Shown here: positions 3,323-31,705 of the stretch, piece by piece | How the letters are laid out: each line of letters starts with the position of its first letter | Position numbering within the stretch: position 1 is the first letter of the stretch | From: Nemertoderma westbladi | Lineage: Eukaryota; Animalia; Xenacoelomorpha | Reading direction: 5' to 3' | Length of the DNA: 48,754 bases | Assembly (NCBI GenBank): GCA_032718475.1 | Contig: JAUCBJ010006231.1 | Span: 1 to 48,754 of the forward strand | Notes under the pieces: model-generated | Seen by the model: only the letters and a program-made list of their open reading frames with translations | Told to the model about the DNA's origin: nothing | Databases searched by the model: none | Made by a program: the position numbers and the translations under genes

Positions 3323-4494
3323 TGTTCGCGCTTTCAGACCTTTAGCAGTTTAACCTGCCAAATTGGGATGTCTTCTAGATAATAGATCGTCTTTAGCCTA
3401 TGACAAGTATTTGATACACTACATTAGCCGAAGCCAGTCTATGCGCGATCATTCACCCGCTGGATATACCCGGGAGACTGGATTCGGAAGCCTAACCGTA
3501 TTGCGGGGTAGGCCTACTGTATTATTCGACTGATCGTAATATATATAATCTCTGACAAATATTATTCACTTTCGGGAAATATTAACAGTTCCTTTAGGAC
3601 GTGGCGCTTTAAATATATAAACAGAGTTATGACTTAAACTAGACACAACGGGATGGCTATAGATTCACGTATATGGCGCATTCTTTAGGAGATGCTTTGT
3701 TATCAATCACAATCATACACAATACTGCACAATGCTGCACACTAATCTGCCGACCTTCACTAATTTTAGTCACATATAAGGAGAACAACAGACAATACGT
3801 GTAGGGCCTATAAAATAGCATTAGATTCACTTCAAACCACTTAATGTAAGTCGCAATCGTTATATGTATCCGGTCTCTCTAACCTTTAGTATATCAAGAA
3901 GATTGGGGTGTCTGGTTATTTATCAGTATTCCAAATATAATATTCCATCAACAAATATAATGAATAACCGACAGTAAATAGCAGTACAAAGTTTAAGGTA
4001 TGAATGCAGAATTGGTATGAGATATGTTAAGTGAGTGAGTGAATGAGATAACAGATATACGTTCTATAATTAAGCCTACTAATGTTGAGCTAAAGACTGA
4101 AACACGGAGGTTCCAAAGCCGATGTTGTAGGCTGTGGACAAAATCACATACTGACTCAACTCCACGAGTTTCTATATACCATCTCCAACACAGAGGCAAA
4201 AAACGCTCTGATTGGTCGACCGAACAAAGAAGGAACAGAGAACAAAGAACAAGCTCCACGTGTACAGCATCAGCTGTTAACCGTCGTCATGGTAGCTACA
4301 CTGTTTCAAGAGGATCTGGCGTATTGCGTCATAGAATTGCTAATTATGTCCGTTAAAGTACACATACAGAAGAAATGGCTTTTATGTCCTCTAAAACACC
4401 AGTACAGTAAGGACACGGCCTTTTATGCCTGTTAAACCAACTACAGAGTACTTTACGGGGAAAATAACCGGCCAATTCCGCAAAAGCCTTTACA
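3323..4494 (-). repeat. 3' LTR of element G (1172 bp)
   Basis: Direct repeat of 18074-19255; about 7 substitutions and one 10-bp indel by eye. Confidence 0.97.
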
Positions 4495-4502
4495 CCGCTC
4501 CC
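4495..4502 (-). other. Polypurine-tract-like sequence before the 3' LTR of G
   Basis: Minus strand reads GGGAGCGG|TGTAAAGG. Confidence 0.6.
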
Positions 4503-4580
4503 AGAAAATGGGATTTAAGTCTATAAAATATAACAAATCACAGTTTCTAAAATATAAAAATACTCTAAACAGTTAGTCTT

Positions 4581-7729: not shown

Positions 7730-8791
7730 TTAAGTTGGGGAGTCCCTAGATGTTTGTTGGATTACGGAGGTGGTCGTGGGAAGAGTATCTTGCCTTCCAT
7801 AGTTTCCGGAGAGTTCTCTGTCTCTTTCCAATAAACATAAGCGACCAACTGGGCGATTGAGCTGCTGTGTCTCGAAGACAATTCCCGGTTTCTTGAAGTT
7901 ACGTCACATGACGACGAGTTCTACCGATCGCCCCAAACCGTCATCCGAGATGTGAGTCTCGATGATACGACCTGTCTGCCACCGCTTACGTGGAAGATCT
8001 ACATCCACAATAAGAACCATGTCTCCAGCGCTGACGTTTTCTTGCTGCGCAAACCACTTAGTTCGAAGTTGTAGCATGGGCAGATAATGTTTTTCGAAAT
8101 GGTCAGCGAAATGACGGGATAACAACTGCTTGAGTTGCCAAGTTTGCCTGCAGTATTCGTCTCCGTCTGTGATTTCCGATTGTGGGAGCATGGCTGCAGG
8201 TTTCTTCAGTAGGAAGTGCGCGGGTGTTAGCGCTTCCAGGGAATCGGGACTCGATGAGACTGGCATAAGCGGTCTCTCGTTGAGATAGGCGGCGATTTCC
8301 TCCATTAACGTCCGCAAAAGTTCGTCGGTGAGATACGCGCGGCAAGGCACTATAACGTGAAATGCGGTCTTCACACTTCTTATTAATCTCTCCCAACTTC
8401 CTCCCCACCAAGGGGCGTCGGCGGCGTTGAAGGTCCAGCTAGACGCTGTTACTCGTAGCTGATCGTCCACCTGTCTTTGGTTCCAATCTTTGACGTAAGC
8501 TTTGATTTCATTGTTGGCACCAATGAAGTTTGTTCCCTTATCAGATCTCATCGTGTTACTAGTGCCAAAGCGAGCGATCTGTCGTCGTAAGCTTAATAGA
8601 AAGCTGTTGGTAGATAAATCGTTCACCATGTCGAGATGGATAGCTCTACAAGTCATACAAACAAAGATTACACACCATCTCTTGACTATAGTCCTAGCAC
8701 GATATACTTCAATAGGGCCAAATAAATCTACACCGGTATTAGTAAAGGGTGGTTCATAGAAGCTTACTCGTTCCCTAGGTAATTCTGCCTC
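7730..8791 (-). pseudogene. pol: Integrase core and C-terminus of element G, same frame as pol, two premature TGA codons
   Basis: After TGA at 8792: EAELPRERV...TGVDLFGP...SDKGTNF...GGSWERL (DDE). After TGA at 7904: LNRPVGRLCLLE, ending with TAA at 7730. Confidence 0.93.
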
Positions 8792-11700
8792 TCACTGTGT
8801 TAAAGGCCTACTGAATGCTTTCCTACAGGGTATGCAGTTCCTAAGAACTTGGTTCAGAGCTCTACGGGGTTTATAAAAATAATAGCGAGTTCGAATTTCG
8901 CTAAGAACTCGTTCTCTACCAGCATGATAAAGTTTGCTGTGAACGTCTACAATCATCTTGACTTGTATTTCAAGATTTCTAATGAGTATGGGAAACTTAG
9001 TGTCAAAGGATAATGGAGCATTCGTTAATCTTCCTCCAACACGTATCAACCCATCTATCATTGTGCTAGAGAAACGATCCCTTAAGCGCATCTGTGGATT
9101 TCTCAACAACAGGAAATACTTATCGGAATCCTCATAGCATTGCAGGAGTCTCAGCATCTGCTTGTTGGTTTCTTCATGCTCCTGATAACTGATCTTCTCC
9201 TTCAGAAACCTGTCGGATATCTTATATTTGGGAAGATCTTTAATAACATGGACCTGCACCGATGTTATTGGAGCGATATCACTTTTGGTCTTCATCCCGG
9301 AGTAGTGATGGTGAAAACATCTCTTTAAATATGTAACGGCCTTACAGAGCCGATTCCAGGAACTGTAGTGATGTATCGCTCTCTGCAGAAGAGGTGAGAG
9401 TCCTTGCGAGACGTCTGGTATTCCAGATTTCCAATCCTTCTCACGGATTTCCACAACAAGTTTATTTGTGGCTGTGGGTTTCTGATCCAAAGCGTCGTCT
9501 CCGGAAGTATGTAGTACAGACAGATCTACCGTGGGTTTGAATAACTTCGATTTACTCGCCCGAGTTTTAGGTTTGACTTTCTCCGCTCCCTTGGCCTGTC
9601 TAATCTCTGTGGTAGTAAGATGAGGAGGCCATTCTTCTTCTTCTTTGTAGAGGAAGTCGGGTCCACCTAACCAGTCTGGAGTATCTACCAGTTCTTGTGG
9701 AGTTGCTCCCCTGGAAGCGATGTCTGCTGGATTAATCGTTCCGGGGCAATGTCTCCATTGATCCATCGTTGTGCGACTGAGTATAATGGCTACTCTGTTG
9801 GTAACGAAGACGCTGAACTGACAGACTTCATTGGTTATATACTCCAACACGAGTAAAGCATTGGTCCAATAGACAGTTTTCTCCAGTGGATAGTCGATCT
9901 GTTCTGTTACATTCCGGCCGATGGCTGTAGCGTATAGAGCCGCTTTTAACTCCGCTCGAGGAACTTTCAACTTATTGTTTATCAATGCCTTAGAAGTAAC
10001 CAAGGCGACTTTGATTCCGTCCGGAGTTTCCACCCTTAGGTAGGCTACTATACCTATTCCCACATCGCTGGCGTCTCCAAACACATGGAGTTGATAGGAA
10101 TACGTAGGGAGAACATGACCAAAATATGAACGGGAAATTATAAAGTTCTCGATGGCTGGTAGAGAATCTTCCCATTTCATCCACATCTTTAATAATTCTC
10201 CCTTAAGTGGATCATCCCATGAGTGGTTTTCAAGCCACATTTGTTGTACTAAACTCCGAGCAATCAATATAACTGGGCTAATAAATCCCAATGGATCGAA
10301 ATAAGTGCTCAGGATACTTAAACAAATCCATTTAGTCCGAACTGGATTATCTCGCTGTTTTAGTTGGAAAAACAGGATATCTCTTTCTGTGTCCCATTTC
10401 AAACCAAGGGTCTTAGTTTCTGGGAGATCATCTTTTATTAGATCCAGGTCTTTCGCTCCTCGATCTTCTACCGGGATCGACTCCAGAAACTCACGGGAGT
10501 TGCTGGTGAATTTAGTTAATCGAAATCCACCTCTTTTTAAGCACTCTACCGTTCCTTTAGCGACGTCAATGGCTTCTTCGACTGATGGAAGGGACTTTAG
10601 ATTGTCGTCCATGTATATATCAAGCTTGATGTTGTCAATCACTTCTTTAGAGAAGGCGTCTCGGTTGTCATCCGCAGTGGTGCGCACCACTGAACAGGCG
10701 TTTGAAGGGCTTGAGATTATCCCAAAAGCCTGGATGGTCATCCAGTACTCCACCGGTTTCTGGTTGAGGTGTCCTTCAGGCCACCACAGAAATCGTAGGC
10801 TATCTCGATCCCTATCCAGCGCCTTGACTTGTAAGAACATGCCTTCTATATCTGAGGCGAAAGCGATTGAATATTGTCTTAATCTTAAGAGTATTCCCAA
10901 CAAGGATTGGAGTAAGTTGGGTCCGGGTAACAATTCAGAATTAAGGGATTGGCCCATATAGAGGGCGGAACCGTCAAACAGCACTCGTACCTCATGGGGT
11001 TTACCGGGTTTGGGAACATAATGGTGAGTTAAATAATACGTTCTCTCAGTTATAGGTGTTTCTTTCGGTACTAGCTCCGCATATCCCTTGCTAATAAATT
11101 TCTTCAACTGCGTTTGATACATTTCTTTAGCTGAAGAATTTGCCGTAAGGCGTCGATGTAGTTGAGCAATCCTTTTCTCCGCCAAGGGTCTGTTGTTTAC
11201 GAAATTTGGTTCTCGCTTTCGGAAAGGTAGACCGATCTCATATCTACCTTGATCTTTAAGAAAACGTGTAGTTGTCTCTTGGATCTGCTTGGCTCTTTCT
11301 TCCTCTACCGATAGGGCCTTATCGTAGGAATTGGGCTCTACAGCCTCTTGAGTAAAGAATCGTACGGCGTGTTCATCCCGAGTCTTGGCATTATAACGTT
11401 CAATGACGTCATTAAGCTCTTCGTTATAATCGTCTCGTTCTGATGGAAGAAGGAGCTGACATAAGTTCACTTGGTTTTGCCAAGTCTCGTTTTCCTTAAG
11501 GAGATCGATGGTATTCTCCTTGTCGAAAAGTTGGTGGACATCGTCATTATCTGAGGAGTATGGTGTTCCCTCAGTTGGATCGTCTAACTCACTGCCCTCG
11601 ACTTCCCATTCTCTTACTTGATATACCTGGTCTTTTGGTAATCTTTCCATGAGAGTTCTACGGGAAGGGCCAGTAAAGTACCAACCCACTCTAGTTCTTC

Positions 11701-13141
11701 CCGCATAAGCTTGTAGTGGTTGCGGTTGAGCGGGCCGTTTCTCCAATGTCTCGAGCGCTTCATGCGCGTTTTGACCGATGAGTATTTGCACTCCAGGGTA
11801 ATCAGTGTTGAATCTAGGTATTTCCAGCTGCTGGGTGAAATCGTCCTCATCCCAGTTATAAGGTTCCACTTGTGTGGTAGCGAAGTTCTTTATCGCCACC
11901 ATTTTTACTGACCTTATACTATGTTCTCCTAGTTCATCCTGGGGGGTGGATAACGCACCTACATAATAATCCGCTATTACTGTAGATTTCCAAACTTGCA
12001 TAATTCCTGACATGTTTAGCTTAGTTCGGAACTTGGGTTGTCCAGCAAAGATGTCTTCGGCTAGTTCTTTGTCGATGAATGTTCCTGTACTACCAGAGTC
12101 AAGGAGGGCGTTCACTACATAACTCCTTTTATGTCCGTGGACCCTTACCTGTACTACAGGAAATTCTCGGATTCCTACATTGGAAGGTGGCGCTTTCCAA
12201 GATGGTTGTCGATCAGAAGTAGTTAGGGTGAGGTCGCTGTCTGTGTCTTTTTCATACGTAAGTGCTCGATACACTGCGGTATTTATCATGTAACAGGATT
12301 CACCTTCGTCTGAGAATTCATCTATATAGAATCCTTCCATCTCAGAACTTTGGTCAGTGTCGTTCACATCACTGAATTGGACATGTAGTTCGGAATCACT
12401 TACCTGACTCTGGCTGTTTCGCTCGAATTCAGTGTGCAACAAGATATGATGTTTCGCACCGCACTTTGCACACCTTGTGTCGGAGTAACAGGTTCGCCGT
12501 TGGTGTCCTTGTCTGAGGCAATTATAACACAACCACTTATCCCACATGACTTCCCGTCTCTCCGCTAATGATTTCTTCAGGAATTCATCACACATATTCA
12601 AACGGTGGGTCCCGTCACATAGCGCACATTTCGGTTTGATGTTACTTACCTTATTTTGAATAACATTGTGCACACTCGTTCTTTCTTCGGGCTTTCTCAC
12701 CTGAATTCTCTTAGGAGACGTAGGAGGAGTTTTTCTTACCTGTTCTCTCCTGTCATTGGTTCGAGACTTGAGTTTACTTACCTGTTCTTTAGGCATTTTA
12801 TTGACATAATAAGATCTTTCAGTGTCTTTCCCGCTATCCTCCCCTTGAGAAGTCTGGCTTTCGCCGTCGTCGGTATAACACACTGGTGTTACCTTTCTCC
12901 TAGAAACGGGTTTCTCACTTACCTTGTTTTCCGGTGTCTTCTCTCTGGACTGTTTTAGGAGCTGTAATTTCACTTCTCCATCTAAGAATGACATGAGATC
13001 AGCCATGGTAGGGTCTCGTCGTTGTTGTTCCATCATATATAACACTTTCTTATCCCAGCGTGTACCTACTCCACCCTTCGGTAAAGTAGAAGCCACGGCT
13101 CCAATGACCATAGAACTCTGATATTCATGACTACCTACCAT
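8792..13141 (-). CDS. pol: Gag C-terminus (3 zinc knuckles), aspartic protease, RT, RNase H and integrase zinc finger of element G
   Basis: CALCDGTHRLNMC, CYNCLRQGHQRRTC, CAKCGAKHHILLH, LLDSGS, YMDD, VFGDAS, PRAEL, NPADIASRG, HSKLYH...CIPC. Confidence 0.96.
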   Translation of the reverse strand: MVGSHEYQSSMVIGAVASTLPKGGVGTRWDKKVLYMMEQQRRDPTMADLMSFLDGEVKLQLLKQSREKTPENKVSEKPVSRRKVTPVCYTDDGESQTSQGEDSGKDTERSYYVNKMPKEQVSKLKSRTNDRREQVRKTPPTSPKRIQVRKPEERTSVHNVIQNKVSNIKPKCALCDGTHRLNMCDEFLKKSLAERREVMWDKWLCYNCLRQGHQRRTCYSDTRCAKCGAKHHILLHTEFERNSQSQVSDSELHVQFSDVNDTDQSSEMEGFYIDEFSDEGESCYMINTAVYRALTYEKDTDSDLTLTTSDRQPSWKAPPSNVGIREFPVVQVRVHGHKRSYVVNALLDSGSTGTFIDKELAEDIFAGQPKFRTKLNMSGIMQVWKSTVIADYYVGALSTPQDELGEHSIRSVKMVAIKNFATTQVEPYNWDEDDFTQQLEIPRFNTDYPGVQILIGQNAHEALETLEKRPAQPQPLQAYAGRTRVGWYFTGPSRRTLMERLPKDQVYQVREWEVEGSELDDPTEGTPYSSDNDDVHQLFDKENTIDLLKENETWQNQVNLCQLLLPSERDDYNEELNDVIERYNAKTRDEHAVRFFTQEAVEPNSYDKALSVEEERAKQIQETTTRFLKDQGRYEIGLPFRKREPNFVNNRPLAEKRIAQLHRRLTANSSAKEMYQTQLKKFISKGYAELVPKETPITERTYYLTHHYVPKPGKPHEVRVLFDGSALYMGQSLNSELLPGPNLLQSLLGILLRLRQYSIAFASDIEGMFLQVKALDRDRDSLRFLWWPEGHLNQKPVEYWMTIQAFGIISSPSNACSVVRTTADDNRDAFSKEVIDNIKLDIYMDDNLKSLPSVEEAIDVAKGTVECLKRGGFRLTKFTSNSREFLESIPVEDRGAKDLDLIKDDLPETKTLGLKWDTERDILFFQLKQRDNPVRTKWICLSILSTYFDPLGFISPVILIARSLVQQMWLENHSWDDPLKGELLKMWMKWEDSLPAIENFIISRSYFGHVLPTYSYQLHVFGDASDVGIGIVAYLRVETPDGIKVALVTSKALINNKLKVPRAELKAALYATAIGRNVTEQIDYPLEKTVYWTNALLVLEYITNEVCQFSVFVTNRVAIILSRTTMDQWRHCPGTINPADIASRGATPQELVDTPDWLGGPDFLYKEEEEWPPHLTTTEIRQAKGAEKVKPKTRASKSKLFKPTVDLSVLHTSGDDALDQKPTATNKLVVEIREKDWKSGIPDVSQGLSPLLQRAIHHYSSWNRLCKAVTYLKRCFHHHYSGMKTKSDIAPITSVQVHVIKDLPKYKISDRFLKEKISYQEHEETNKQMLRLLQCYEDSDKYFLLLRNPQMRLRDRFSSTMIDGLIRVGGRLTNAPLSFDTKFPILIRNLEIQVKMIVDVHSKLYHAGRERVLSEIRTRYYFYKPRRALNQVLRNCIPCRKAFSRPLTQ

Positions 13142-13173
13142 AACCTAACCTAACCTAACCTAACGATACTTAC
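13135..13173 (-). other. 39-nt in-frame insert with (TTAGG)4 and GT-AG ends separating the gag and pol ORFs
   Basis: Minus strand TGG TTA G|GTAAGTATCGTTAGGTTAGGTTAGGTTAGGTTATGGTAG|GT AGT CAT; removing it gives the open frame WLGSHEY. Confidence 0.8.
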
Positions 13174-15958
13174 CTAACCAATCTAATTGTCTACAGATCT
13201 CTTGAATCTCATCGGAAAACTCTATTATCCCGCTGCTAATGAACTTTCGGGGCGCTACTAATTTTGCATACAAATATTTAGCTATGTTATTCCTATTACC
13301 ATACCTGATGTTTAGTGTATCCCAAACTTGTCTTAATCCGTCTGGATGTCCAATAAACTTTAACGCCATTAACTTGGGAGATCCTTCCAAGCACTCGATG
13401 AGGAATCTAAGTTTCTCTCCATTAGATAGTACAGAGTTCTGTATGTTATCTTTATAATATTCATTAAAAGGTAACCATTTCATCTCATCTCCATTGAACT
13501 TGACTATCTCTCCCACCTTTACCGCTTGGCGGGCTTCGGTTCTAGCCATTTGATGCGTAAAACTTTCTTGGGCCATCGTGTTATTTAATATCGAGTTATC
13601 GGTATATAAATTTCTCGGATTATGATCAGGTCTATAGGGAATATCATTATCAACAGGTCTATAATTACCCTTAATAGGGTTCACTATAGGAGTTTCTACT
13701 TCGCTAGCCGTATATATGCGTGTAGGCTCCACACCTTGCGCATGAGATACTTCAGACCTAACAGGTTGACACATTGTTACAGGGGGTGGTGGTATACCTC
13801 TTTGTGTATTTACTAATTTATCGCGTTCTAACGCGATACTTTGCTGCACTTCTTGCAACTCTAACCTACTTTCCCTTACTGTGCCCTTGAATTGCTGAAC
13901 AGTCTCCTGCATCTGCCCGAGCAGGAGATCCATCCCCCGTCGTCTCTCATCCACCCACTCGACCGCCGAAGCGGGAGCCGCCAATGTTGTAGCGGGCGGA
14001 CGAGGGACAACGGGCGACAAATCATTAATTTTTCGCTCGGAGTCAGGGACATGAACATTTTCAGGGGTGGTTCTGTGGGGCACAGGTAGCTTAGTGCTGT
14101 GCAGAGGGAATTTAGAGGTAGGTTCTGGGAGCACAGGTGTCTCTATCACCGAAGGGGTGATTTCAAGAACAGGCCTAATTATTTCAGGCTCATCTACTAT
14201 AGTAGGGAGTCTTTCTATTTTAATTATTTGGTCTGTGGGTTCTGCACTACCTAAGTCTGTGTTAGTTAGTTGCCTTCTAACAGCTGGGGGCAAATCAGGC
14301 AATTTGTGACGGTGAGATGTTCTTCTACACCTACTTAGACGAGATCTATTTCCTCCGCCTTCAGGATCGGTGGTATCGCCTTCCTCAGATGATGTATAAC
14401 CTTGTCTTTTGGGAGTAGATCGATTCATCATCTGCATATTACTAGCTGTTAACTGTTTATTGAAGTTGTCTTGCCTCTCTTGAAGATTTTCCAACTCTAG
14501 TTGGGTTGTCTCTTCAGATGCCCTCCGTTCTGCTTCTGCCACTGCCTCTGCAGCTGCCAATGCCGCTTTTCTTTCCGCTTCGGCCGCTGCCACTGCCGCT
14601 TTTCTTTCCGCTTCTGCTTCTGCCGCTGCCGCTGCCACTTTTCTTTCCGCTTCTGCCTCTGCCGCTGCCGCTGCTGCTTTTCTTTCCGCTTCTGCTTCTG
14701 CCGCTGCCGTTGCCGCTGCCGCTTTTCTTTCCACTTCTGCCGCTGCCACTGCTGCTGCCACTGCCGCTGTCTTTCTGTCTTCTATACGTTTTTTCTTTAC
14801 TTGTTCTTCTTGAACCTTAGCGATGCGGATGCTTTCATTGAATTTGGCTTGGTTCGCAACTAACCTATCCACATCGATTGCATCCAACACAAGCTTGGCT
14901 CCTTCACTATTAGGGCTAAGTCCATCCAGCCGTCTCCTCAACTCTTCGTCACCTACAAAGCGTTGATAGTCTGACAGATAGATGTCAATAGCATCCCTCT
15001 TATGCGGTTTCTCTGCTGTCGCTTCACTTTCCACTTGGGAAAATGTGGCGTCTGTTGATTCTCCAAGGGTTGAGCGCTCATCTAACTGAGATTTCCACGG
15101 GGCAGTTCTTTGAACTTGGAGACTCACCCGTTGAAACCAAGTCTTTACGGCAACTTGCAACGACGTGTCTTGTCTTCTTTTAGAAGCCTCCTCAAAGGCC
15201 GATAAGAGTAGCCTGATTCGTAGGATTCTTTCTCTAACTTGATAAAGCAGCTGTCCCTGCTCTTGAGGTCCTTGGGGTTGTTGAAACAGTTGTTCTTTTA
15301 ATCGCTCCATAGAGCTGAAGAATCCCTGTACGTATCCTGCTGCTGACCTCTTCCACACAGCTGGATCGATGGTTTCCTTGGTTACTCCCATCCTGTGTAT
15401 GTCTTCCCAGGCAGCTTCTGATAAATCAAACGGGAGTCCGGGTCCGGGGAAGTTCCATTGCGACTCGACAATAGACTTCAGTTCTTCCCTTGTGTATCCC
15501 GCATAACTATCTTTAGTCGATCGCTTATTTCTCGCCCAATCGATCTGGTGTTCTTCCACCGCAATCAATAACCTAGTGAGTACGGCTGCAGGAAGGATGA
15601 GAAGGGGATCCGAATAAACCGCATCCGTCATCTTTGCTCCGCGCTCGGGTGTCAGCTCTACAGTATCCTCACTACTGGAGCTGTCGGGCCGTTGAGAAAT
15701 AAGTTCTTGGCTCGCGGGTTGTTGCTGTTCCGCTGCTTCTTGGTCCCGCTTGACCTGAGCTCGAGTGCCTATGATAGACCTACGATGTTGGACTAGCCTA
15801 GGGTCTGATATTACTACGGGAGGGATGATCTTTCTTACAGTAGGAGGTGAGTTGAACTTCGGTCCTACACGTTCCACACTCCTGTCTGGGTCACATATGG
15901 TTGTATCTAGGAGACTGTCTGACAGGTTTTGCTTTGTGTTTTGTGCTTTGTTTGTCAC
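13160..15958 (-). CDS. gag: Gag N-terminal region of element G (coiled coil, Pro-rich region, Pao gag core)
   Basis: 932-aa ORF; KFNGDEMKWLPF...EKLRFLIECLEG...WDTLNIRYGN is the DUF1759-type Pao gag core. The annotated start is GTG; the first ATG is about 110 codons in. Confidence 0.9.
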   Translation of the reverse strand: MTNKAQNTKQNLSDSLLDTTICDPDRSVERVGPKFNSPPTVRKIIPPVVISDPRLVQHRRSIIGTRAQVKRDQEAAEQQQPASQELISQRPDSSSSEDTVELTPERGAKMTDAVYSDPLLILPAAVLTRLLIAVEEHQIDWARNKRSTKDSYAGYTREELKSIVESQWNFPGPGLPFDLSEAAWEDIHRMGVTKETIDPAVWKRSAAGYVQGFFSSMERLKEQLFQQPQGPQEQGQLLYQVRERILRIRLLLSAFEEASKRRQDTSLQVAVKTWFQRVSLQVQRTAPWKSQLDERSTLGESTDATFSQVESEATAEKPHKRDAIDIYLSDYQRFVGDEELRRRLDGLSPNSEGAKLVLDAIDVDRLVANQAKFNESIRIAKVQEEQVKKKRIEDRKTAAVAAAVAAAEVERKAAAATAAAEAEAERKAAAAAAEAEAERKVAAAAAEAEAERKAAVAAAEAERKAALAAAEAVAEAERRASEETTQLELENLQERQDNFNKQLTASNMQMMNRSTPKRQGYTSSEEGDTTDPEGGGNRSRLSRCRRTSHRHKLPDLPPAVRRQLTNTDLGSAEPTDQIIKIERLPTIVDEPEIIRPVLEITPSVIETPVLPEPTSKFPLHSTKLPVPHRTTPENVHVPDSERKINDLSPVVPRPPATTLAAPASAVEWVDERRRGMDLLLGQMQETVQQFKGTVRESRLELQEVQQSIALERDKLVNTQRGIPPPPVTMCQPVRSEVSHAQGVEPTRIYTASEVETPIVNPIKGNYRPVDNDIPYRPDHNPRNLYTDNSILNNTMAQESFTHQMARTEARQAVKVGEIVKFNGDEMKWLPFNEYYKDNIQNSVLSNGEKLRFLIECLEGSPKLMALKFIGHPDGLRQVWDTLNIRYGNRNNIAKYLYAKLVAPRKFISSGIIEFSDEIQEICRQLDWLGKYR
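14520..14770 (-). repeat. 33-bp-based tandem repeat encoding EAERKAAAAAA units in gag
   Basis: Repeated TTTCTTTCCGCTTCTGCTTCTGCCGCTGCC on the + strand. Confidence 0.9.
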
Positions 15959-16275
15959 AGAATACCGGTAGGTAATTTCAGCACAAATATATATAAATAT
16001 ATAATAGGCCTATCGTGAATACCGGTATGCAGCTTACACTTATAGTATATATAAGTATAATTATGAACTAGAATTAATTACAGAATACCGGTATAATTTC
16101 AGCCTAAATTTATAAATATATAATAGGCCTATCTTGAATACCGGTATACAGCTTACACTTATAATGTATATATATAAGTATAATTACAGACTAGAATTAA
16201 TTACAGAATACCGGTATAATTTCAGCCTAAAATTTATAGACATAAATATAATAAGCCTATTGTAAATACCGGTAT
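15957..16275. repeat. ~123-bp tandem repeat (about 2.6 copies) in the 5' leader of G
   Basis: ACAGAATACCGGTA...AATTTCAGC starts at 15957, 16080 and 16203; AATACCGGTA occurs twice per unit. Confidence 0.88.
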
Positions 16276-17223
16276 GTCAATTATTTGTGAATAATTGAAT
16301 TTCTGAATTTTAAGGGTTACTTGGTTACTTTAACTTACTTTATTACCGTTATTTACGCAGTAGTCCAACTGATATTTAGACCTAATTGATGTATGGCAGG
16401 CCTACTATTTATAAATCGTTTGAGTTGATTTATAATATATATACCCGTTAAAATGGGTTTTTGTCAATATTTGAAATAAATGTTATTATTTCTGGGGGAA
16501 GTCACTACACAGAAGCTGTGCGCTCTCAGTGAAGTGCTACTTGTTGGACACTAAAACAAATAATTCTAATTTACCTAAGTTACTTAATACTACAAATTAC
16601 ATACAATTCGGGTGAGATTATAATCTCTAAATAAACACAAAAATTACAAGTACGAATTTTTAGGGTAATTTTACAAGAAGTCTACAAACCAGCCTAACAA
16701 AGGGTTAGATTATCTGGTTATTACAAAGGACAGGGTACTACGGTATTTGAAAATAATAAGTAGTAGTAAATATACTGCGTTGTCCAGATAGGAAAATACC
16801 ACCGTCTGACGACTTATAGCCGTATCGCTATAAGTACTACGTTATGTATCATAGAGTGTTCCTACCCAGGAGTTAATTACCGCGGTCTACCAGAACCAAT
16901 GTGCCTATTAACCACTTTACAACACAAATATACTGCCTACACACTAATTACCTTCGGAAAGCACTGTACACTAAACCCTAAATTAGGTACAAGTACTTAT
17001 ACAACAAATAATCAGTAGTTAAAAATACTTGAAGCTAAAAGAACCACGGTATCTGCTGGAGTAACCGGGGCACAAAATCACCAGTCTTTACCTACGCCAA
17101 GCAGCCCTGATGTAGTACCGGGGTTAGTTTAACTATAACAGTATATATAACAAGCACAATTACTGTAGGAGTTAACTTGGGGATATGAATGTTGCGAATA
17201 ATCGCATAAACTCTGAATAATAA

Positions 17224-17790
17224 ATATTACGCTACGCGTACAGACTACTCAAACAAAATGCAGACCAAACACTGACGGACTACTATCAGGCCCAAACAAA
17301 CTACGGTATATGCAGACTCCGAAATGGTTAGTTAGTATGCGTTCTAACCCAGTAGTACGACTTATTCTTTCGAGGGGGTTTACCTCACAGCTCTGGAGGC
17401 CCCTACGTTCCCAACTGGCACTTTATCGGACATACACTCTACACACACCGAAATCTCTCAAGACCTAACAACAGCCAGACAAAATCCAGCCTACAAATTA
17501 TCTAAGTAAGAAATATTACGCTACCCGTACAAACTACACAAACAAAGTACCGACCAAACGCTGGCAGACTACTATCAAGCCTAAATAAACTACAGTATAT
17601 GCAGACTCCGAAATGGTTAGTTAGTATGCGTTCTAACCGAGTAGTACGACTTATTCTTTCGAGGGGGTTCACCTCACAGCACTGGCAGCCCCTACTTTCC
17701 TAACTAGTACTTTTTCGGACATATGCTCTACACACACTACAGTCCCCTCAGACTTAGCAACAGTCAGACAACAGTCTAGCCTACAAATTG
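17224..17790. repeat. 289-bp tandem duplication in the 5' leader of G
   Basis: AATATTACGCTAC...GCCTACAAATT occurs twice; 86-nt cores at 17306-17391 and 17595-17680 differ at 2 positions. Confidence 0.9.
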
Positions 17791-18061
17791 TCTGTACAAT
17801 CTGAGCAGGCTTACACGCCTTCTGCTCAATATTGGCCTACAAATAAATAAAACTTGACAGAAATAAGTAAAATCTCAATAAAAAACCAGGGCGGGCCCTC
17901 CCTGATTCAATATTAAGGCCTACCGGTATATAATTATCAAATCGAATAATACTGCTGTACCTGTACTGCTGTAGGTACCGGTCCGGGTGGTTAGGTAGTC
18001 AGGCCTACTAGGTACCGGTTGTCCGGTACTTCAGCTTTATTGCCTACTGCAATACAGAAGC

Positions 18062-18073
18062 TATATCTGTTAT
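18062..18073 (-). promoter_or_regulatory. PBS position of element G: non-tRNA type, complementary to its own LTR
   Basis: Minus strand ATAACAGATATA directly follows the LTR end; it complements TATATCTGTTAT at 18820-18809 (minus). Confidence 0.75.
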
Positions 18074-19255
18074 TGTTCGCGCTTTCAGACCTTTAGCAGT
18101 TTAACCTGCCAAATTGGGATGTCTTCTAGATAATAGATCGTCTTTAGCCTATGACAAGTATTTGATACACTACATTAGCCGAAGCCAGTCTATGCGCGAT
18201 CATTCACCCGCTGGATATACCCGGGAGACTGGATTCGGAAGCCTAACCGTATTGCGGGGTAGGCCTACTGTATTATTCGACTGATCGTAATATATATAAT
18301 CTCTGACAAATACTATTCACTTTCGGGAAATATTAACAGTTCCTTTAGGACGTGGCGGTTTAAATATATAAACAGAGTTATGACTTAAACTAGACACAAC
18401 GGGATGGCTATAGATTCACGTATATGGCGCATTCTTTAGGAGATGCTTTGTCATCAATCACAATCATACACAATACTGCACAATGCTGCACACTAATCTG
18501 CCGACCTTCACTAATTTTAGTCACATATAAGGAGAACAACAGACAATACGTGTAGGGCCTATAAAATAGCATTAGATTCACTTCAAACCACTTAATGTAA
18601 GTCGCAATCGTTATATGTATCTGGTCTCTCTAACCTTTAGTATATCAAGAAGATTGGGGTGTCTGGTTATTTATCAGTATTCCAAATATAATATTCCATC
18701 AACAAATATAATGAATAACCGACAGTAAATAGCAGTACAAAGTTTAAGGTATGAATGGTTATGAATGCAGAATTGGTATGAGATATGTTAAGTGAGTGAG
18801 TGAGTGAGATAACAGATATACGTTCTATAATTAAGCCTACTAATGTTGAGCTAAAGACTGAAACACGGAGGTTCCAAAGCCGATGTTGTAGGCTGTGGAC
18901 AAAATCACATACTGACTCAACTCCACGAGTTTCTATATACCATCTCCAACACAGAGGCAAAAAACGCTCTGATTGGTCGACCGAACAAAGAAGGAACAGA
19001 GAACAAAGAACAAGCTCCACGTGTACAGCATCAGCTGTTAGCCGTCGTCATGGTAGCTACACTGTTTCAAGAGGATCCGGCGTATTGCGTCATAGAATTG
19101 CTAATTATGTCCGTTAAAGTACACATACAGAAGAAATGGCTTTTATGTCCTCTAAAACACCAGTACAGTAAGGACACGGCCTTTTATGCCTGTTAAACCA
19201 ACTACAGAGTACTTTACGGGGAAAATAACCGGCCAATTCCGCAAAAGCCTTTACA
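18074..19255 (-). repeat. 5' LTR of element G (1182 bp)
   Basis: Minus strand TGTAAAGG...CGCGAACA; direct repeat of 3323-4494. Confidence 0.97.
18911..18976 (-). promoter_or_regulatory. Putative LTR promoter of G (CCAAT, TATA-like, Inr)
   Basis: Minus strand CCAAT 18976-18972, TATATAG 18939-18933, TCAGT 18915-18911; a second TCAGT lies near 18859. Confidence 0.5.
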
Positions 19256-19260
19256 GCTGT

Positions 19261-20363
19261 GAAGTTTAAATAACAGCAGTAAGTTCTCCTTGGCAACGTT
19301 GAATTTTGTATAGCAACAACGAGTTACCTTAGCAATGGGTAATTTCACAAGGTAGCAGCGAGTTTTCAAATAATTACCAAGTTTTCTACATCATCTGTGA
19401 GAGCCATATTTCTAAAACCAACAGCGAGGAGCTTACCAAACAGCAAATTGATAAATTATAATTATTGAGAAGCTCTAAATCAACGATGAGTCATACTTAT
19501 TAATGGCGAGTTCTCTAGTAATATCTAATTTACAATGCTTATGACGTATTTCTCAAAGTTCATCCTCATCAAGACCATTGTCGATGTAGCACATATTGCT
19601 GCAGGTGCAGATGCCTCTACATTCTTGGCATGCAGTCGAAGATTCCAAGCAATTTTGCGGCAAGAACATCGCAGAGAAGTGCACCCAGTAATAAATTTGC
19701 ATCTTATCATATTTAAATGTATCACAACCTAATAGAGCATATGAAAAATATATTTTCACAAACGATAGACCCAAGTAAATACCGAGTTAGAACAATATCC
19801 CAGCAACGACTTTGCTTTTGAGATGTCTTTATGGGTTCAGGCTTGAAATAAACCTTCTATCCTACATTATTACAATGGTATATGATTAACACTAGGATGT
19901 CAGTATCATCACCAATAACAACAGTATCATTATTTTCTGCTGAAGAAATAGCCATCTGGGCGGTAGTTACATCAGCATCAGCTTCAGCATAAATTATAGT
20001 GCATTCTATTTGTGTGAGGTTTTCCCCAAGCATTATGTATAAATGCATCTTTATTATGCTTACAGTATTAGAAAAAAATTATCCTTTCTTCATTTGTAAA
20101 TTCATGTTTCCTGCAAAATATATAGTAGTGATGCAGAAAACTTGGTAATTATTTGAAAACTCGCTGCTACGTTGTGAAATTACCCATTGCTAAGGTAACT
20201 CGTTGTTGCTATACAAAATTAAACGTTGCCAAGGAGAACTTACTGCTGTTATTTAAACTTCACAGCTAATTAAAAAATATGTTATCACTTTAAAAACGCG
20301 ATGTTGGTACTAAAAGACCCCGGTTGCTAAGAAAAACTTTGTTGGTAAATACATTAAGGCCAT
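19261..20363 (-). mobile_element. Internally deleted DNA transposon with ~230-bp TIRs and XPG/FEN1-like plus Cys-rich remnants (AcademX-like)
   Basis: Minus-strand EADAD...VVIGDDTDILVLIIYH, YALLGCDT and CTSLRCSCRK...TACQECRGICTCSN; TIR pairing 19261-19393 with 20128-20265. Confidence 0.75.
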
Positions 20364-24582: not shown

Positions 24583-25189
24583 TGTGAGCGGATTCAATTC
24601 CACCTCATTACCCCCATAAAGTTGGGAAGTGGCGCCCTTTTTCAGCAATATTGGAGATACGAGATTGATAACAACCAATCTCGTATCACACCCAATAACG
24701 GGGATAACACACACCCCAAAAGCCACACAAAGGGAGGTTAGAGGTCAAACCACCTCGAGAGGGCAAATAACCAACAGGGGGGGGGGGGGGGGGGGGTGGG
24801 GAAGCACTCCCACAGAGGTGAGAGGCGTGAAGTAGGTTATCAACCAATAGGAGCGGGGAAAGGCATCCACTGGACAAAGGCCATAGTAATGTAGGAATGA
24901 TTAGATATATTATCAATGTGTTGAGATAGCAATTCAGTTATTCCAGTCATTAGTTGAGTGCAGACTGGTGACATCTTGCACCATCACCGTCACTACATAT
25001 TACATATATAATCACTACCGGTACACTGTTATTCCGTCATTATCTATCAACTGTGCTGTTATTTACTATTCAGTTATTCGATTATTATCAATACGAACAT
25101 CAAAGCGATAACAACAAACTGCTATTTTATCTCAATATCACGGTGACGCGTAGTCTGACAACCGGTCGGGATCCCTTGATCCCGTCACA
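24583..25189 (+). repeat. 5' LTR of element B (607 bp)
   Basis: Direct repeat of 31115-31705; about 6 substitutions plus G-run and 3-bp indels by eye. Confidence 0.96.
24845..24939 (+). promoter_or_regulatory. Putative LTR promoter of B (CCAAT, TATA-like, Inr TCAGTT)
   Basis: CCAAT near 24845, TATATTA at 24906, TCAGTT at 24934-24939 (30 nt from TATA to the Inr A). Confidence 0.55.
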
Positions 25190-25198
25190 GTGCAAGAT
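25190..25198 (+). promoter_or_regulatory. PBS position of element B: non-tRNA type, complementary to its own LTR
   Basis: GTGCAAGAT directly follows the LTR end; it complements ATCTTGCAC at 24973-24981. Confidence 0.7.
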
Positions 25199-25232
25199 AC
25201 CCAACAACCACAAACTGTGACTGCCAGAAAAG

Positions 25233-28200
25233 ATGAGCACAGGACAACAACGATTGTCGGAGGGAGAGAGGACACCGCCGCGGACCCTGGACGATACCAA
25301 CGAAATGATCCGCGAGGCCGCGACGCGACGGTATCGACCCGCGACGCCGGATTCGCCGGTGAGAGACGATCCGGCAGCACCCGAGGTTAACCCCGAGGAT
25401 TTGGTCTCGTCGGTTAGCGAGAACCCCAGAACCCCAGGAGTCGGTCGCGACCGATAAGTCCGCTACATCCTCCGCGAAAGCAAGAAGGGTGTTAGAGATA
25501 GATCTGGCGTGTCAATTAGACATGGTGGCGCTATACCAGAAAGAATTAGAGAGGCAGTTGGATGAGGGAACTGCGCTGATGAAGAAAGAGAGGGAGTTGG
25601 CGAGGGAGTATAGAGAGAGGGCCGAGAGGGTAGCGAGAAATTGTAGAGAACAAGAAGAGAGAGAGGCAGAGGAACGTAAGGAACGAGAAACGAGAGTAGA
25701 GAAGGAGCGTAAGGAGCGAAAGACGAGAGAGATGAACGAGCATAGAGAGCAAGAAGCGAGAGTAGAGAGCGAGCGTAGAGAGTGGGTGGTGAGAGAAACA
25801 GAGTTGGCGAACCAGAGTTTGCAAGAGGATAGAGAATGAGAGAGGGCGGGAAAGCATATGCGGGATGATATGCATGCCCGGATAAGGGGGCTTATGCAAT
25901 ATCAGGCCAAACAGAAGCACCGACTGGAACTGGCGCAGTTGGGATTATCTGAGAGTGAGGCTGGCTCGGGTAGTATTTACGAGGAGCCAGAAGTTATGGA
26001 AACGTTTGTTAATACCCCACTTACAGGGACCGGATGACAGACCCAAGACTGGTGTGACTGTACGGGTGGGGGGGGGGGGGGGGGTAATAATAATACGCTA
26101 GAAGGCGTTAATATTAATAGTACCGTAGTAGACAACCCTAATCAAACTTTCATTGCAGGAAATAATATTTTGCCCGGTAACAATAATTTAAATCCGAATG
26201 ATCCTAATTTAAATATAGAAAATAATTCAAATAATAATCTTGATTCGAATATACAAATTTAAATACGCAAAATAATCTAAATAATAATTTTAATTTAAAC
26301 GAACAAAATAATCCCGATTCTAATCCAAATATACAAAATAATTTAAATAATAATCCGAGGGTACAGAATAATTCAAATAATCCAAATAATATCGATAATA
26401 ATGTTAATAATGGTGCTATTAATATAAACGCGGCAGATGTAGGTGGTCCGGCCAGCGAGAGCCTGCAAGGCCACATAATTAGTACACAGGGGGTAGCGGG
26501 GGTGAGAGACCCCGAAGGGAGCCTGGAAGGCAGCGTAATTAATACGCAGGGAGTAGCAGGGGTGAGTCAACCCGACGGGAGCCTGCCAGGCCACGCAGTG
26601 ATAAGGGGAGAGGCGGGGGTGAATAGACCCAGCCACAGTAGAGACAGTGCGTCGACGAGATAGGGGCATAGAGGCGAAGCGAGAGATAGTGAAGTGATAG
26701 GTGGTGAGTGGGGGTGGGCTACAGGAGCCCCACAACGAGAGATTAGCGGCGAGAGGGAGGGGGCAGAGAGAGTCCAACAGGCGTCGGCGGACGATGCGCG
26801 GGTCGGGTTAGGTGGACCACAGCACCCGGCGATGGAGAATAGTAGGGGGATTACGAATATCCCCAGCGGCGTGCGACTGGGTAGAGAGAGGGAGGTTGGC
26901 GTCGCGAGCGGGCGAGCGATGAGACATCGAGCCCAGTCAGAAGAGGGAAGAAGAACAGTGGAGTTTAACCGGGAGGTCGACGAGAGATCTCACGAGCGGG
27001 GACGCTACACTGAAGAGAGAAGAAGAGAAGAGAGTGGAAGAAGTGTTGCTAGGAGCGACCAGAGAGCGAGGACGATTAGCGAGCCGTCGGTAGTAGAGAT
27101 GGAGTTGGAGAGTCAGTGGGGTCGTACTCCGGGAGATTGCCGTCGCCCCGGAGAGATGCAACCTGGCGAGGTGTACTATACGCCGAGAGAGGGGTACAGG
27201 GCGTACCAGTAGGAGGACGAGAATAGGAGAGGAGATCGAAGAGAAACTTCCCGACGGGATATAGCTGCCGATCGCGGGTACGGTAGTCGCGGGGAGGACT
27301 TCTTGGATTATTCGAGAAGGTTAGACTTCGGTCTGGAGGGTCACATACAGACTGCAGGATATACTGTAGGCCTTACTGTACATACTATAGGCCATGCTGG
27401 GAGAGATAGTGTAGGCGATAGGGTAGCGCGGACAATGGGATTAAACCCGGAAGTCGCGGAGTATATACCAGTAGGTAGTGCAGAAGAGGATAGGCCTATA
27501 CCGGAACCAGCACAGCAGTATGACTATAACATGCAGGGACATAACATATATCCAGGGGAGGGGAGAGTTATTGCGGATAGGTGTATGGGCCCAAATATAT
27601 TAACATCAACCCCAGTACCAAACATACCACCAGTGGGGGGGGGGGGGGGGGCAGGGTGACATTCCCCCTTTACAATATCAACAATACACTCAAACAGAAA
27701 TAAGAACATCGAACCCCCTGGACGAGAACAGGTCTTGCGACACGGAAATATGGAGGGGGCCATTACCCCCAATGATATATCCGATGCAACGGAAGGCAAC
27801 AGGCTGGACGGGCGGACCGCACCCAATGGGAGAATCTGTACAGCATCCTTCGAATCCATTGGAAGCACAGGCGATGGGAATGGCTACACTAATCGATGCG
27901 CTCAAGACCAGAATCGAGCTACCACCCGTAGAGCCATTTAAATTTGACGGAAGTAGGCCGGAAGAATACCTGCAATTTCGGCGCATGTACAGCAACGAGA
28001 TATTAACTAAGAACCTGACGCAGGCAGAGTGCCTAAAATATCTACAGGTATATACAGGAGGCCCAGCGTACGACATCGTGAGGCAGTATCAGGGCATCGA
28101 GGGTGGCTTCACGACTGCATGGCGGGCCCTAGACAGGGAATACGGGCACCTGGCCAAGATCATCCGGGAAACCCTGAGGGGTATTACATAGGGTGGCCTA

Positions 28201-28960
28201 CAGGATAACCCCGTTAGCATAAAGACGTTTGCAAACAAAGTCAAGAAGGCGTTAATCGTGCTGAAAACACTAGATGCACCATACGAACTTAACGCATCTA
28301 ATAATATCACCACGATAGCGCAGGCACTGCCAATCTGGCTGCGCAATAAGTGGAGAAAAATCGCCTTCTCCACCCGGGAGAAGAAGGGTGCGGAACCGGG
28401 CCTAGAGGAAATGTCGAACTTCCTCAACTACGAAGCCAAGTTGATCACGGACCCAGTCTATAGCGAGGATAGTCTGGGAAAGGGACCAAAGACCGAATAT
28501 AGCAGGCCGAAATCAGAACACAACACGGCAAACGCATTGCCAAAGCTTAGACAATCGCTGCCATACGCGCGATGCAGAGGACTGCTAGTCCACATGTAGC
28601 CGGGGGTAGGGCCACACCATGGAGTGGACAGGGGAAAAATAACAACACAAACAAACATAACCCCAACACGCCCAGTAGGCTGAACCCAAACAATAAGAAC
28701 AGTAGGGATCTAGGCACGAACATAAGTGCGATACGCAGTGCACTGTATAGGGACGGCTATAATCCAAACAACAAATGCCAATTGCATACGAACGCACTTC
28801 ATCAGACCATGAACTGCAGATATTGGCAAGCGTTGCCCAAACAAGATCAGGTAGAATATGCAAGGAAGAGTGGAATCTGTCATCGATGTGTGGCGGGCGG
28901 ACACAGAGCTGATCAATGCAAAGAAACACCAATTAAATTCGGTCAAGGCAAAGGGCAAAC
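25233..28960 (+). pseudogene. gag: Fragmented gag of element B
   Basis: Coiled-coil ORF 25489, core LPPVEPFKFDGS...AWRALDREYG, LPIWLRNKW, knuckles CQLHTNALHQTMNC and CHRCVAGGHRADQC; many stops and frameshifts. Confidence 0.88.
26460..26630 (+). repeat. Three diverged 60-bp tandem units in gag of B, preceded by an Asn-codon-rich repeat (26160-26430)
   Basis: GCCTG(C/G)(A/C)AGGC... at 26461, 26521 and 26581. Confidence 0.8.
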
Positions 28961-30664
28961 AATGGCGACAAGCACCATAGGGGCGAAGAATAGAGGAACG
29001 GTACTACTCGGAGTAGTACCAGTGAGGGTGATCGATCAGTAACCACACTGATGCTGGTCGACAGTGGAGCAGCCTTCACATTGGTGGAGAATTGGGTGGC
29101 CGAAGAGATAGGACTAAAGACGAGGCCAAGTAGGATGGCGGTAACAACCATCTCTAGCAAAGATGAGGTCCTGGAGATGAGGACGGGATGGTGCGAGATA
29201 GCAGCGATAGCACCGGGATGCGATTATGGGGTGACCATCGACCCCATCCAGGTAATAGAATCGATCAACATCAACGCCAGGCGACCAACCAACATCGAGG
29301 TCGAACAATACAGATTCCTGGACAGCATCGATTTCTCGATACCAGAGGTGGACGTTAGGAAAGTATCCATCATAGTGGGAATGGACAGCCCGACGGCCCA
29401 CGAGAGAATGCAGACGGTCTTCGGCGAAGACAGACAGCGTGACCCGATGGCAATTTTAACACCATTCGGGTGGATGCTAAGCGGCCCAATTAAAACCAAG
29501 ATTCTGTTTAGGATGTCGGAGACATCAGGGTGCATTTTCGCAGGAACTATGAGGGAGATAGAAGATGAAGGAGCGGAGGAGCAACTCAGGAGACTGCTCA
29601 GACAAGACTTTGAGGGACTAAAGGAGACCGGGGTCGGAACCTCGGTAGAGGATAAACAAGCAATACAAAGTGTGAAGGAGTCGATGAGATGCGACGAGGG
29701 GCGGTACACCATAGGCATGGTGTGGAAACAACCAAAATTACCGCTACCGGAGAACAAGAGAATGGTACTCACGAGGCTTCGTAAACTGAAGCAAATGCTG
29801 AAGCGGAGCACCGAGAAGGATGAGTACATCCACAAGACGATAAGGAAGTATGTCGAGAAAGGATGGGCAGTAGAGTTTCCGGTCGACAAACCAAACACGG
29901 ACAGGACCTATTACCTGCCACTTCACGTGGCTCTAGATCCAAAGAAAGGTAAATTGCAGATGGTAGTTGACGCATCGGCTAAAACCAACAGCAAGTGCCT
30001 AAACGACTATCTGCTGGAGGGCCCAAATATCTATAACTCGGGAATCGAGGTCCTACTGAAATTTAGAAATGGGAGACACGCCTTCACCTGCGACATTGGA
30101 GGCATGTTTAACCAAGTCCATGTGACGGAGGAGGATAGTGACAGCCAGCGCTTCCTATGGTACAACGGCGACGAGGAACTGTCGACAATACCGATGTATA
30201 AGATGGTGGTGCAGAACATGGGGGCCAAGTCGTCCTCATTTACGACGACTGTGGCTGTAAGAGATACAGTAGAGGAGAAAGAGGGGAGGTAGAGCGCCAA
30301 AGCGGTCGATATGATCCGACACGGCTTCTATGTAGACAATGGAATGGAGTCTGGAAACACGGTTAAAGAACTAATGGATACAGGGCGCGAGGTTCGCAAC
30401 ATCCTGAAGGGATCCGGGTTTAACCTGACCAAGTTCCAATCCAGCTCAGAGGAGTTTATGAAAGTCATAGAGGACAGACGGCCAGAGTCGACCATGGATA
30501 ACCCCACAACAGCCAAGGGACAGGACATGGCGAACAAGAGAGTAGAGTCTCAGCAGAAGGCACTGGGGATCGTGTGGAACCGGGAGACTAGACGTGGCAC
30601 TACACACTTCACACTTCTTAAGTGCGACGGCACGGAAGGGGAGGGTGAGGCTCGTCAGGAGTGA
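28961..30664 (+). pseudogene. pol: Protease and RT of element B, truncated by deletion
   Basis: LLGVVPVRV, LVDSGA, YYLPLH, VVDASAK, DIGGMFNQV, RFLW, FYVDN, ALGIVW, then an abrupt switch to RRGTTHFTLL. Confidence 0.92.
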
Positions 30665-31105
30665 ATGGGGTAAAGCGAGTAAGGGTTGAGTATAGAACGC
30701 AGGGGAGATAGTGAGAGGTGGTGTTGAGGCGTGTGGAGAGAGTACGGGTGCGATTCAAATGTGGGGGGGAGGAGTAAGAGGCAGAGTGAGGGACAAAGAG
30801 GTCCGAAAGTGGAGTGGAGTTAGAGTGAAAGTAGAGAGAAGTTAGAGTCAGTTTAGAGTGGAGCGGAGATTTAAAATTGTGTGAGAGGAGTCCACAATTG
30901 TCTCGAACCGAGACGCCAGATGTCTTGGTGCAACATAGATTGGGGTTGCACGAAGAGGGGGTAGTAATATCATACCCAGAGGGAGCAGCCTGGAAAGCCG
31001 ACTCCAAGTAAAAGAACTCCACCCCACACCCGATAGTAGATCGGGTTCCAGCGGAATTGAAGCGCACTCATAGGTGATGCTATCTTCTCACCGGGAAGAT
31101 AGCAT

Positions 31106-31114
31106 GGGGGGGAG
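31106..31114 (+). other. Polypurine tract of element B
   Basis: GGGGGGGAG directly before TGTGAG of the 3' LTR. Confidence 0.85.
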
Positions 31115-31705
31115 TGTGAGCGGATTCAATTCCTCCTCATTACCCCCACAAAGTTGGGAAGTGGCGCCCTTTTTCAGCAATATTGGAGATACGAGATTGA
31201 TAACAACCAATCTCGTATCACACCCAATAACGGGGATAACACACACCCGAAAAGCCACACAAAGGGAGGTTAGAGGTCAAACCACCTCGAGAGGGCAAAT
31301 AACCAACAGGGGGGGGGGGGGAGCACTCCCACAGAGGTGAGAAGCGTGAAGTAGGTTATCAACCAATAGGAGCGGGGAAAGGCATCCACTGGACAAAGGC
31401 CATAGTAATGTAGGAATGATTAGATATATTATCAATGTGTTGAGATAGCAATTCAGTTATTCCAGTCATTAGTTGAGTGCAGACCGGTGACATCTTGCAC
31501 CATCACCGTCACTACATATTACATATATTATCACTACCGGTACACTGTTATTCCGTCATTATCTATCAACTGTGCTGTTATTTACTATTCAGTTATTCGA
31601 TTATCAATACGAACATCAAAGCGATAACAACAAACTGCTATTTTATCTCAATATCACGGTGACGCGTAGTCTGACAACCGGTCGGGATCCCTTGATCCCG
31701 TCACA
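31115..31705 (+). repeat. 3' LTR of element B (591 bp)
   Basis: Direct repeat of 24583-25189, followed by TSD ATGGA. Confidence 0.96.

Follow-up and report, generated by a model that had tools for sequence, protein, structure and literature searches.

We found that the BEL/Pao element G carries, directly behind its 5' LTR, a 12-nt sequence that is the exact reverse complement of a segment within the same LTR, in the register required for priming. Element G lies in a 48,754-nt stretch of Nemertoderma westbladi DNA (contig JAUCBJ010006231.1, assembly GCA_032718475.1), hereafter called the window. The sequence makes it likely that G primes its own reverse transcription in some form. The version that we favor with moderate confidence is that the primer would be a segment internal to the element's own transcript, cut from its 5' copy. 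An internal position is preferred because the helix extends outward from the segment, the sequence upstream of the segment is conserved and most relatives would need an upstream exon.

Element G is a member of BEL/Pao

Element G measures 15.9 kb and lies on the minus strand. It was delimited and assigned to BEL/Pao by LTR self-comparison, its target site duplication (TSD) and its Pfam domains, and consists of the following parts.

18074..19255, minus strand: 5' LTR, 1182 bp, TG...CA, from the LTR-LTR alignment
3323..4494, minus strand: 3' LTR, 1172 bp, TG...CA
19256..19260 and 3318-3322, minus strand: upstream and downstream copies of the 5-bp TSD ACAGC
4495..4502, minus strand: purine-rich tract adjoining the 3' LTR
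13160..16009, minus strand: 949-aa frame with a long N-terminal extension and DUF1759 at its end; frame break near 13150
8792..13144, minus strand: 1450-aa frame with three Cys/His knuckles, protease motif, RT, Peptidase_A17 (RNase H region) and integrase zinc finger
7904..8791, minus strand: remaining integrase with DUF5641

The TG...CA LTRs, the TSD and the purine tract are the structural marks of BEL/Pao, and the proteins follow in the order gag (DUF1759, knuckles), protease, RT, RNase H (Peptidase_A17) and integrase (DUF5641). The Pfam domains of the interior (DUF1759, Peptidase_A17, Integrase_H2C2 and DUF5641) form the Pao-type set. The RT-RNase H region matches 1023 of 7989 scored candidates; the best 120 of these 1023 are 38-43% identical and have the same Pfam set, and the named homologues among these 120 come mostly from echinoderms, cnidarians, a mussel and fish. 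The tRNA-Arg or tRNA-Gly 3'-end site described for BEL/Pao is absent from G: as originally predicted, there is no TGG right after the 5' LTR, nor is there one in the first 150 nt. G is kept in BEL/Pao despite the absent tRNA site, because membership rests on the proteins. ICTV describes the Belpaoviridae as elements of 4.2-10 kb that are primed by a host tRNA, tRNA-Arg or tRNA-Gly, at an 18-nt site (PMC8742986). They resemble G in their LTRs of up to 1.2 kb, the gag-pol with protease, RT, RNase H and integrase, and the purine tract (PMC8742986), whereas G differs in the lack of a TGG site, its length of 15.9 kb, its leader of 2 kb and a further 3.4 kb on the 3' side.

The G copy is young, but its coding frames are damaged. 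Its LTRs differ by seven substitutions and one 10-nt indel in the alignment, the 1450-aa frame terminates at an in-frame stop (8794-8792), and an RNase H column that is otherwise invariant (39 of 39 homologues alike) is altered. With broken frames, proteins from another copy would therefore be needed.

Several further features of the interior were observed. The 5' leader of about 2 kb (15957-18073, minus strand) contains internal duplications at 17212-17793 (85%) and 15957-16275. The gag frame has about 830 aa ahead of DUF1759, including an Ala/Glu/Arg/Lys repeat, and interrupted extra frames lie between the integrase and the 3' LTR (4573-6095, minus strand). An accessory nuclease was considered for the latter and rejected for lack of support (Pfam DUF5575, E 0.021, below the cut-off); their atlas matches were all below 0.9, with no homologue among the longer proteins. 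Rfam gave nothing at gathering level in positions 1-40000 of the window, and nothing near the primer-binding position of G.

The primer-binding position pairs with the LTR

The following sequences are involved in the self-match.

18062..18073, minus strand: primer-binding position, +1 to +12, 12 nt without TGG; element sense ATAACAGATATA
18809..18820, minus strand: LTR-internal perfect complement and predicted self-primer, TATATCTGTTAT; predicted 3' end at 18809
4048..4059, minus strand: repeat of the primer segment within the 3' LTR
18053..18059, minus strand: leader arm of a 7-pair helix extension
18823..18829, minus strand: LTR arm of the 7-pair helix extension

The original prediction had proposed this perfect match in priming register, and both parts hold: ATAACAGATATA (18073-18062) and TATATCTGTTAT (18820-18809) are exact reverse complements at the right coordinates, and 18809 faces +1, with the 5' LTR ending in CA at 18074 according to the LTR alignment and the TSD ACAGC. 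A wrong LTR boundary is ruled out by the TSD. The 2x2 mismatch followed by seven more pairs, one of them G-U, is likewise real and brings the duplex to -20.9 kcal/mol, compared with -11.8 for the 12-mer alone; the extension thus contributes about 9 kcal/mol. Extensions of at least seven pairs are found at 0.4% of 1,131 other LTR positions of G (P about 0.004). If this extension is in use, RNA upstream of 18829 is therefore needed.

The chance level of about 1e-4 given earlier was too low. Markov simulations yield 0.0005-0.0013 at offset 0, about 5-20 times higher yet still small, and 0.0013-0.0022 for offsets 0-4. Only one of the 13,567 interior 12-mers of G has a perfect complement in the LTR, namely +1 to +12. 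The arrangement is the one that characterizes Tf1-type self-priming at the sequence level, with a leader perfectly complementary to an LTR segment in register. The criterion used in PMC6317226 is a complement of 10 bp or more whose start lies 0-5 bp past the LTR; G has 12 bp at +1.

Related copies retain the segment and its upstream flank

The G stretch or part of it occurs in five of seven sequencing runs, none of the five recorded as RNA; four of them (X1, X3, X4 and X5), all consisting of contigs, were analyzed. The G family is abundant and diverse in these runs, with 326 of 1521 positions varying at a frequency of at least 5%. Related copies retain the primer segment along with about 28 nt upstream of it and diverge one base past the predicted cut.

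18808..18847, minus strand: 40-nt conserved island common to related copies in four runs, with similarity collapsing just past the predicted cut

Within the region 18775-18885, the depth (a sum over contigs and not a copy number) jumps between bins 18803-18806 and 18807-18810 from 12,852 to 108,919 in X1 (8.5-fold), from 3,762 to 76,086 in X3 (20-fold), from 93 to 5,409 in X4 (58-fold) and from 0 to 8.9 in X5. Loose ends that carry unrelated sequence begin at 18807/18808 in all four runs. No substitutions at 3% or more are listed within the island (18808-18847), a listing that omits differences near alignment ends. The sole X5 contig in the region matches only at 18808-18847, with five different letters. 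A CTCA repeat directly after 18808 is mutable and may sharpen the island edge. We consider this edge a possible, indirect sign of an RNase H cut.

X5, a run labelled as another organism, also contains a related leader in which +1 to +4 are kept while +5, +8, +12 and +14 differ. A perfect 15-nt complement of this leader would differ from the window at five positions, which is consistent with the five differences observed in the island, the agreement being one of number. A direct compensatory change within the G family was not seen in the X5 leader and contig. The LTR-leader junction of G itself is spanned by contigs at high depth.

A second element of the window shows the same arrangement

The window holds a second BEL/Pao element, H (24583-31705), with a pol remnant that stops after RT and an RT core 36% identical to that of G.

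24583..25189, plus strand: 5' LTR of H (3' LTR 31115-31705; TSD ATGGA)
25190..25201, plus strand: leader of H, no TGG; +1 to +9 pair with the LTR, and +10 to +12 past a 3-nt bulge
24967..24981, plus strand: LTR-internal complement, with a perfect 9 nt at 24973-24981

The match in H has the same register as that in G but a different sequence (P 0.012). The 30 nt past the predicted cut are nearly free of G in both elements (18779-18808 on the minus strand in G, 24982-25011 on the plus strand in H), with a G-content of 0.00 and 0.03 against 0.20 and 0.23 LTR-wide, respectively. Both stretches begin with C; such a stretch is not general among relatives.

Relatives pair with their own LTRs, mostly across predicted introns

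Scans for relatives gave 98 loci (78 from the best 80 matches of one scan and 20 from another), including 39 with a direct repeat on both sides of RT. Twenty-six of these 39 were inspected and 15 were kept for a usable 5' LTR end; in the others, only the LTR start, a circular overlap, tandem repeats or an indistinct end was seen. For L004, L010 and L017, whose LTR start could not be located, 801 nt were used; L034, L064 and L095 have LTR ends other than CA, which are less certain. Three of the 15 relatives have TGG within 6 nt of the LTR. The TGG site of L067, serving as positive control, is perfectly complementary to a tRNA 3' end that the supplement of PMC13524379 lists.

In a strict test that allowed one intron with strict splice signals and took 250 interior positions per element as the null (P<0.02), eight of the 12 TGG-less relatives were positive, as were G and H, against none of the three relatives with TGG. 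The four negative TGG-less relatives were L034, L048, L085 and L095. Co-variation of the leader with an LTR-internal complement, the check put forward with the original prediction, was positive across families in a cross test: 11 of 14 TGG-less elements (G, H and the 12 relatives) pair with their own LTR over at least 10 nt, compared with 0 of 222 foreign pairings, under donor, acceptor and offset rules relaxed post hoc and with the sister pair L080/L081 excluded from the foreign count. H (9 nt), L085 (8, with a mismatch) and L095 (5) fell short, and the self-match of the three TGG relatives is only 3-5 nt long. Between the sisters L080 and L081, three letters of the match are exchanged in leader and LTR alike (CAC with GTG, TAA with TTA). 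The helix ends at the LTR edge or within 4 nt of it in every positive case.

G and L064 are contiguous among the 11 pairing elements, while the other nine pair across a predicted splice junction. These nine (L004, L010, L016, L034, L048, L071, L080, L081 and L088) have a leader complement of 10-15 nt that becomes complete only across a canonical GT..AG junction, and the predicted LTR introns measure 67-451 nt in eight measured loci. Among 25 additional loci whose LTR end is not known, a blind scan gave a match in eight, compared with 13 of 150 controls; L003, L018, L022, L023 and L025 are also of the spliced type, but L018/L016 and L022/L023 are near-identical. The counts among relatives are thus not fully independent, because some loci are kin or come from a shared sample. 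For G itself, no GT..AG junction lengthens the perfect match, and an AG four bases upstream of the segment brought no convincing gain as acceptor. Lower-energy spliced variants of G, obtained in many tries without a control, retain the same core.

The closest relative of G among the fetched loci is about 42% identical, and G sits on a long branch; what the relatives show therefore bears on G indirectly. Trees of the fetched loci (the first without H, L088 and L095) did not resolve the origin and order of the priming types, with H on a long branch as well. On balance, we lean slightly toward the view that a wide radiation of BEL/Pao in aquatic animals has abandoned tRNA priming in favor of an internal primer that would mostly be assembled by the spliceosome, with G and H as intron-free forms. 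An LTR-end pattern gave 0 matches in metagenome contigs, and no relatives turned up in viral contigs. The BEL/Pao elements L079-L098 sit in contigs of bacterial genome bins and are likely contamination by host DNA.

These comparisons bear on two alternatives. The match could be due to chance, or be left over from a single template switch, and the copy would then have lost its tRNA site: a P of 0.001-0.002 per element can be reached in a large scan, and the G copy is defective in its coding frames. This is very unlikely given the independent recurrence in H and in most relatives, the conservation island in four runs, and an LTR-leader junction that is crossed at high depth and whose first four leader bases are kept in a related family.

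Alternatively, the helix could be structural (packaging, dimerization, translation control or strand transfer) and be displaced by a host RNA, such as a tRNA fragment, that acts as primer. In half-tRNA priming (copia, Ty5 and Bianca type), the site matches the complement of a fragment from within a host tRNA. The C-T-G-T-T-A run in the G 12-mer resembles what we take to be the anticodon loop of tRNA-Asn, which we count in favor of a host primer. Half-tRNA primers without TGG are also known in Ty1/copia lineages (PMC6317226). On the other hand, the positive cases all have their helix end at or close to the LTR edge, and three of the 12 positions are altered in the related leader of X5. The 14 TGG-less leaders are nearly all different and each fits its own LTR, and many unrelated host primers would therefore be needed. 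We regard a host primer as unlikely on these grounds. Only three tRNA calls, all from loci of other organisms, were compared with the leader, with a best match of 3-4 nt.

The primer segment is predicted to lie inside the transcript

The LTR of G contains the following motifs upstream of the segment.

18972..18976, minus strand: CCAAT, upstream of the TATA-like box
18933..18939, minus strand: TATA-like TATATAG, 26 nt ahead of the A of TCAGT
18911..18915, minus strand: TCAGT, candidate initiator, start about 18913
18861-18857, minus strand: second TCAGT

The LTR of H has CCAAT, TATA-like and TCAGT motifs upstream of its segment as in G; in both elements we presume their promoter roles, with TCAGT as initiator. 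By these motifs, the primer end of G would lie 40-105 nt into the transcript: the distance is about 105 nt from 18913, 51 nt from the second TCAGT and 39 nt from the island edge. In H, a TATATT/TCAGTT pair about 46 nt upstream would place the primer end about 46 nt into the transcript.

The transcript of G could instead start at or near 18820, with the 12 nt as its first bases as in Tf1 and the 28 nt upstream as core promoter. The length of 12 is close to the 11 of Tf1 (PMC7175516), and folds begun at 18830 or 18820 readily include the helix, three of the four giving it a pair probability of 0.54-1.0. However, the 7-pair extension upstream of 18820 is improbable by chance, a TATA-like motif is absent at 24-31 nt upstream of 18820, G has its CCAAT, TATA-like and TCAGT motifs 90-155 nt upstream and H a like arrangement 45 nt upstream of its primer end, and the relatives require an upstream exon. 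Such a start appears doubtful.

With the upstream start sites of the preferred reading, the helix of G is less readily predicted, since it closes a loop of about 735 nt, compared with 44-216 nt in relatives, a distance across which fold prediction is weak in either direction. It is absent (pair probability 0) from the whole-leader fold starting at 18913, the likeliest start. In leader folds of 0.9-1.0 kb it is present only with an RNA start at 18847 or later and absent from 18913 or 18870. Forcing the helix costs 5.4-6.0 kcal/mol for a start at 18913, 0.8 for 18859 and 0-4.0 for 18847.

The large loop and the competing folds, which disfavor a 5' helix in cis, speak for yet another possibility, namely a primer from the 3'-repeat copy (4059-4048) or from another RNA packaged alongside. 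Both LTRs contain the segment, and G has no canonical AATAAA or ATTAAA by which its RNA 3' end could be fixed. In L071, L080, L081 and L088, however, the primer end is followed downstream by AATAAA. A cut in the 3' copy would also delete the acceptor for strand transfer, and discarding the spliced 5' piece while using the 3' copy as template would most simply explain why relatives retain their LTR introns. We therefore consider a primer from the 3' copy or a second RNA quite improbable.

Proposed priming mechanism

Minus-strand DNA must start at the base after the LTR, and some RNA must therefore pair there. No CCA end can pair at the site of G, and the sole complementary RNA found is G's own. 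We propose that the transcript of G begins 40-105 nt upstream of 18809 and that the RNA folds back, the segment pairing with the leader. A cut after 18809, probably by the RNase H of the element's RT in analogy with Tf1, would create the primer. Minus-strand DNA would then be made from the first base of U5 up to the cut before jumping to the 3' repeat, and the 3' LTR would supply again what was lost with the discarded 5' RNA piece. Plus-strand synthesis would copy the primer while it is still attached, recreating the site and so holding leader and segment complementary. With such copying, the match could persist without compensatory selection, which would still imply that the segment is the primer. 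G would represent the contiguous form of this mechanism, while most sampled relatives would assemble their primer by splicing out the LTR intron.

Comparison with known self-priming elements

The Tf1 transcript's first 11 bases anneal to the site, and RNase H cleaves between bases 11 and 12 (PMC7175516). Self-priming is listed for Tf1/sushi, Tcn1 and TAR in PMC6317226. G likely works like Tf1 without belonging to Tf1/sushi, as judged from its domains and pairing: Tf1/Tf2 (Schizosaccharomyces pombe) and sushi are Ty3/gypsy chromoviruses, whereas G is Pao-type by Pfam and has no chromodomain match. The Tf1 primer comprises transcript bases 1-11, while the G segment is predicted to lie inside the transcript; the helix of G extends outward and closes a loop of about 735 nt, and relatives of G would build the primer across an intron. 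Self-priming of Tf1 was shown by experiment, whereas G is known from its sequence. The same kind of prediction underlies the self-priming of the Tcn1 chromoviruses and of the Ty1/copia element TAR (Houba/Osr-1) of plants (PMC6317226, in part). These belong to other superfamilies and hosts than G, and the seen part of PMC6317226 has no splice-assembled primer.

For BEL/Pao, the words primer, PBS, tRNA and self are absent from the main text of the survey PMC3118150, and PBS and tRNA from that of PMC554778 (Sinbad). BEL/Pao self-priming is also unmentioned in the available portions of PMC3601003, PMC8220671, PMC5006619, PMC5445492, PMC5443660, PMC2864245, PMC6562904 and PMC13524379. No report was found by title or abstract in a search of partly accessible sources with subscription journals and repeat databases mostly outside it, and an earlier mention is possible.

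If the proposed mechanism is true, self-priming would occur in all three LTR superfamilies and would be common in one that ICTV calls tRNA-primed. This would bear on whether self-priming has arisen repeatedly or is ancestral, as proposed for hairpin or self-priming in PMC3601003. An internal primer would call for a nuclease able to cleave duplex RNA at a long distance from the cap, and if the primer is built by splicing, reverse transcription would be linked to the RNA processing of the host, with splicing licensing it. The missing primer sites in annotation pipelines that seek tRNA matches only would be explained, and such elements may lie beyond the reach of tRNA-fragment silencing. For G, the mechanism predicts an RNA end between 18809 and 18808.

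Other repeats of the window

An element bounded by 139-nt terminal inverted repeats (98%) is located at 19255-20267, directly adjoining the 5' LTR of G. A third BEL/Pao pol remnant, J (1093-2277, minus strand), is interrupted by an 840-bp repeat at 2209-3048; an LTR of J was looked for and none was found. J is the sister of G in the RT-RNase H tree (SH-aLRT 99), both branches being long. Finally, a tandem array of 37-bp units with strong GC skew occupies about 40216-45900 of the window.
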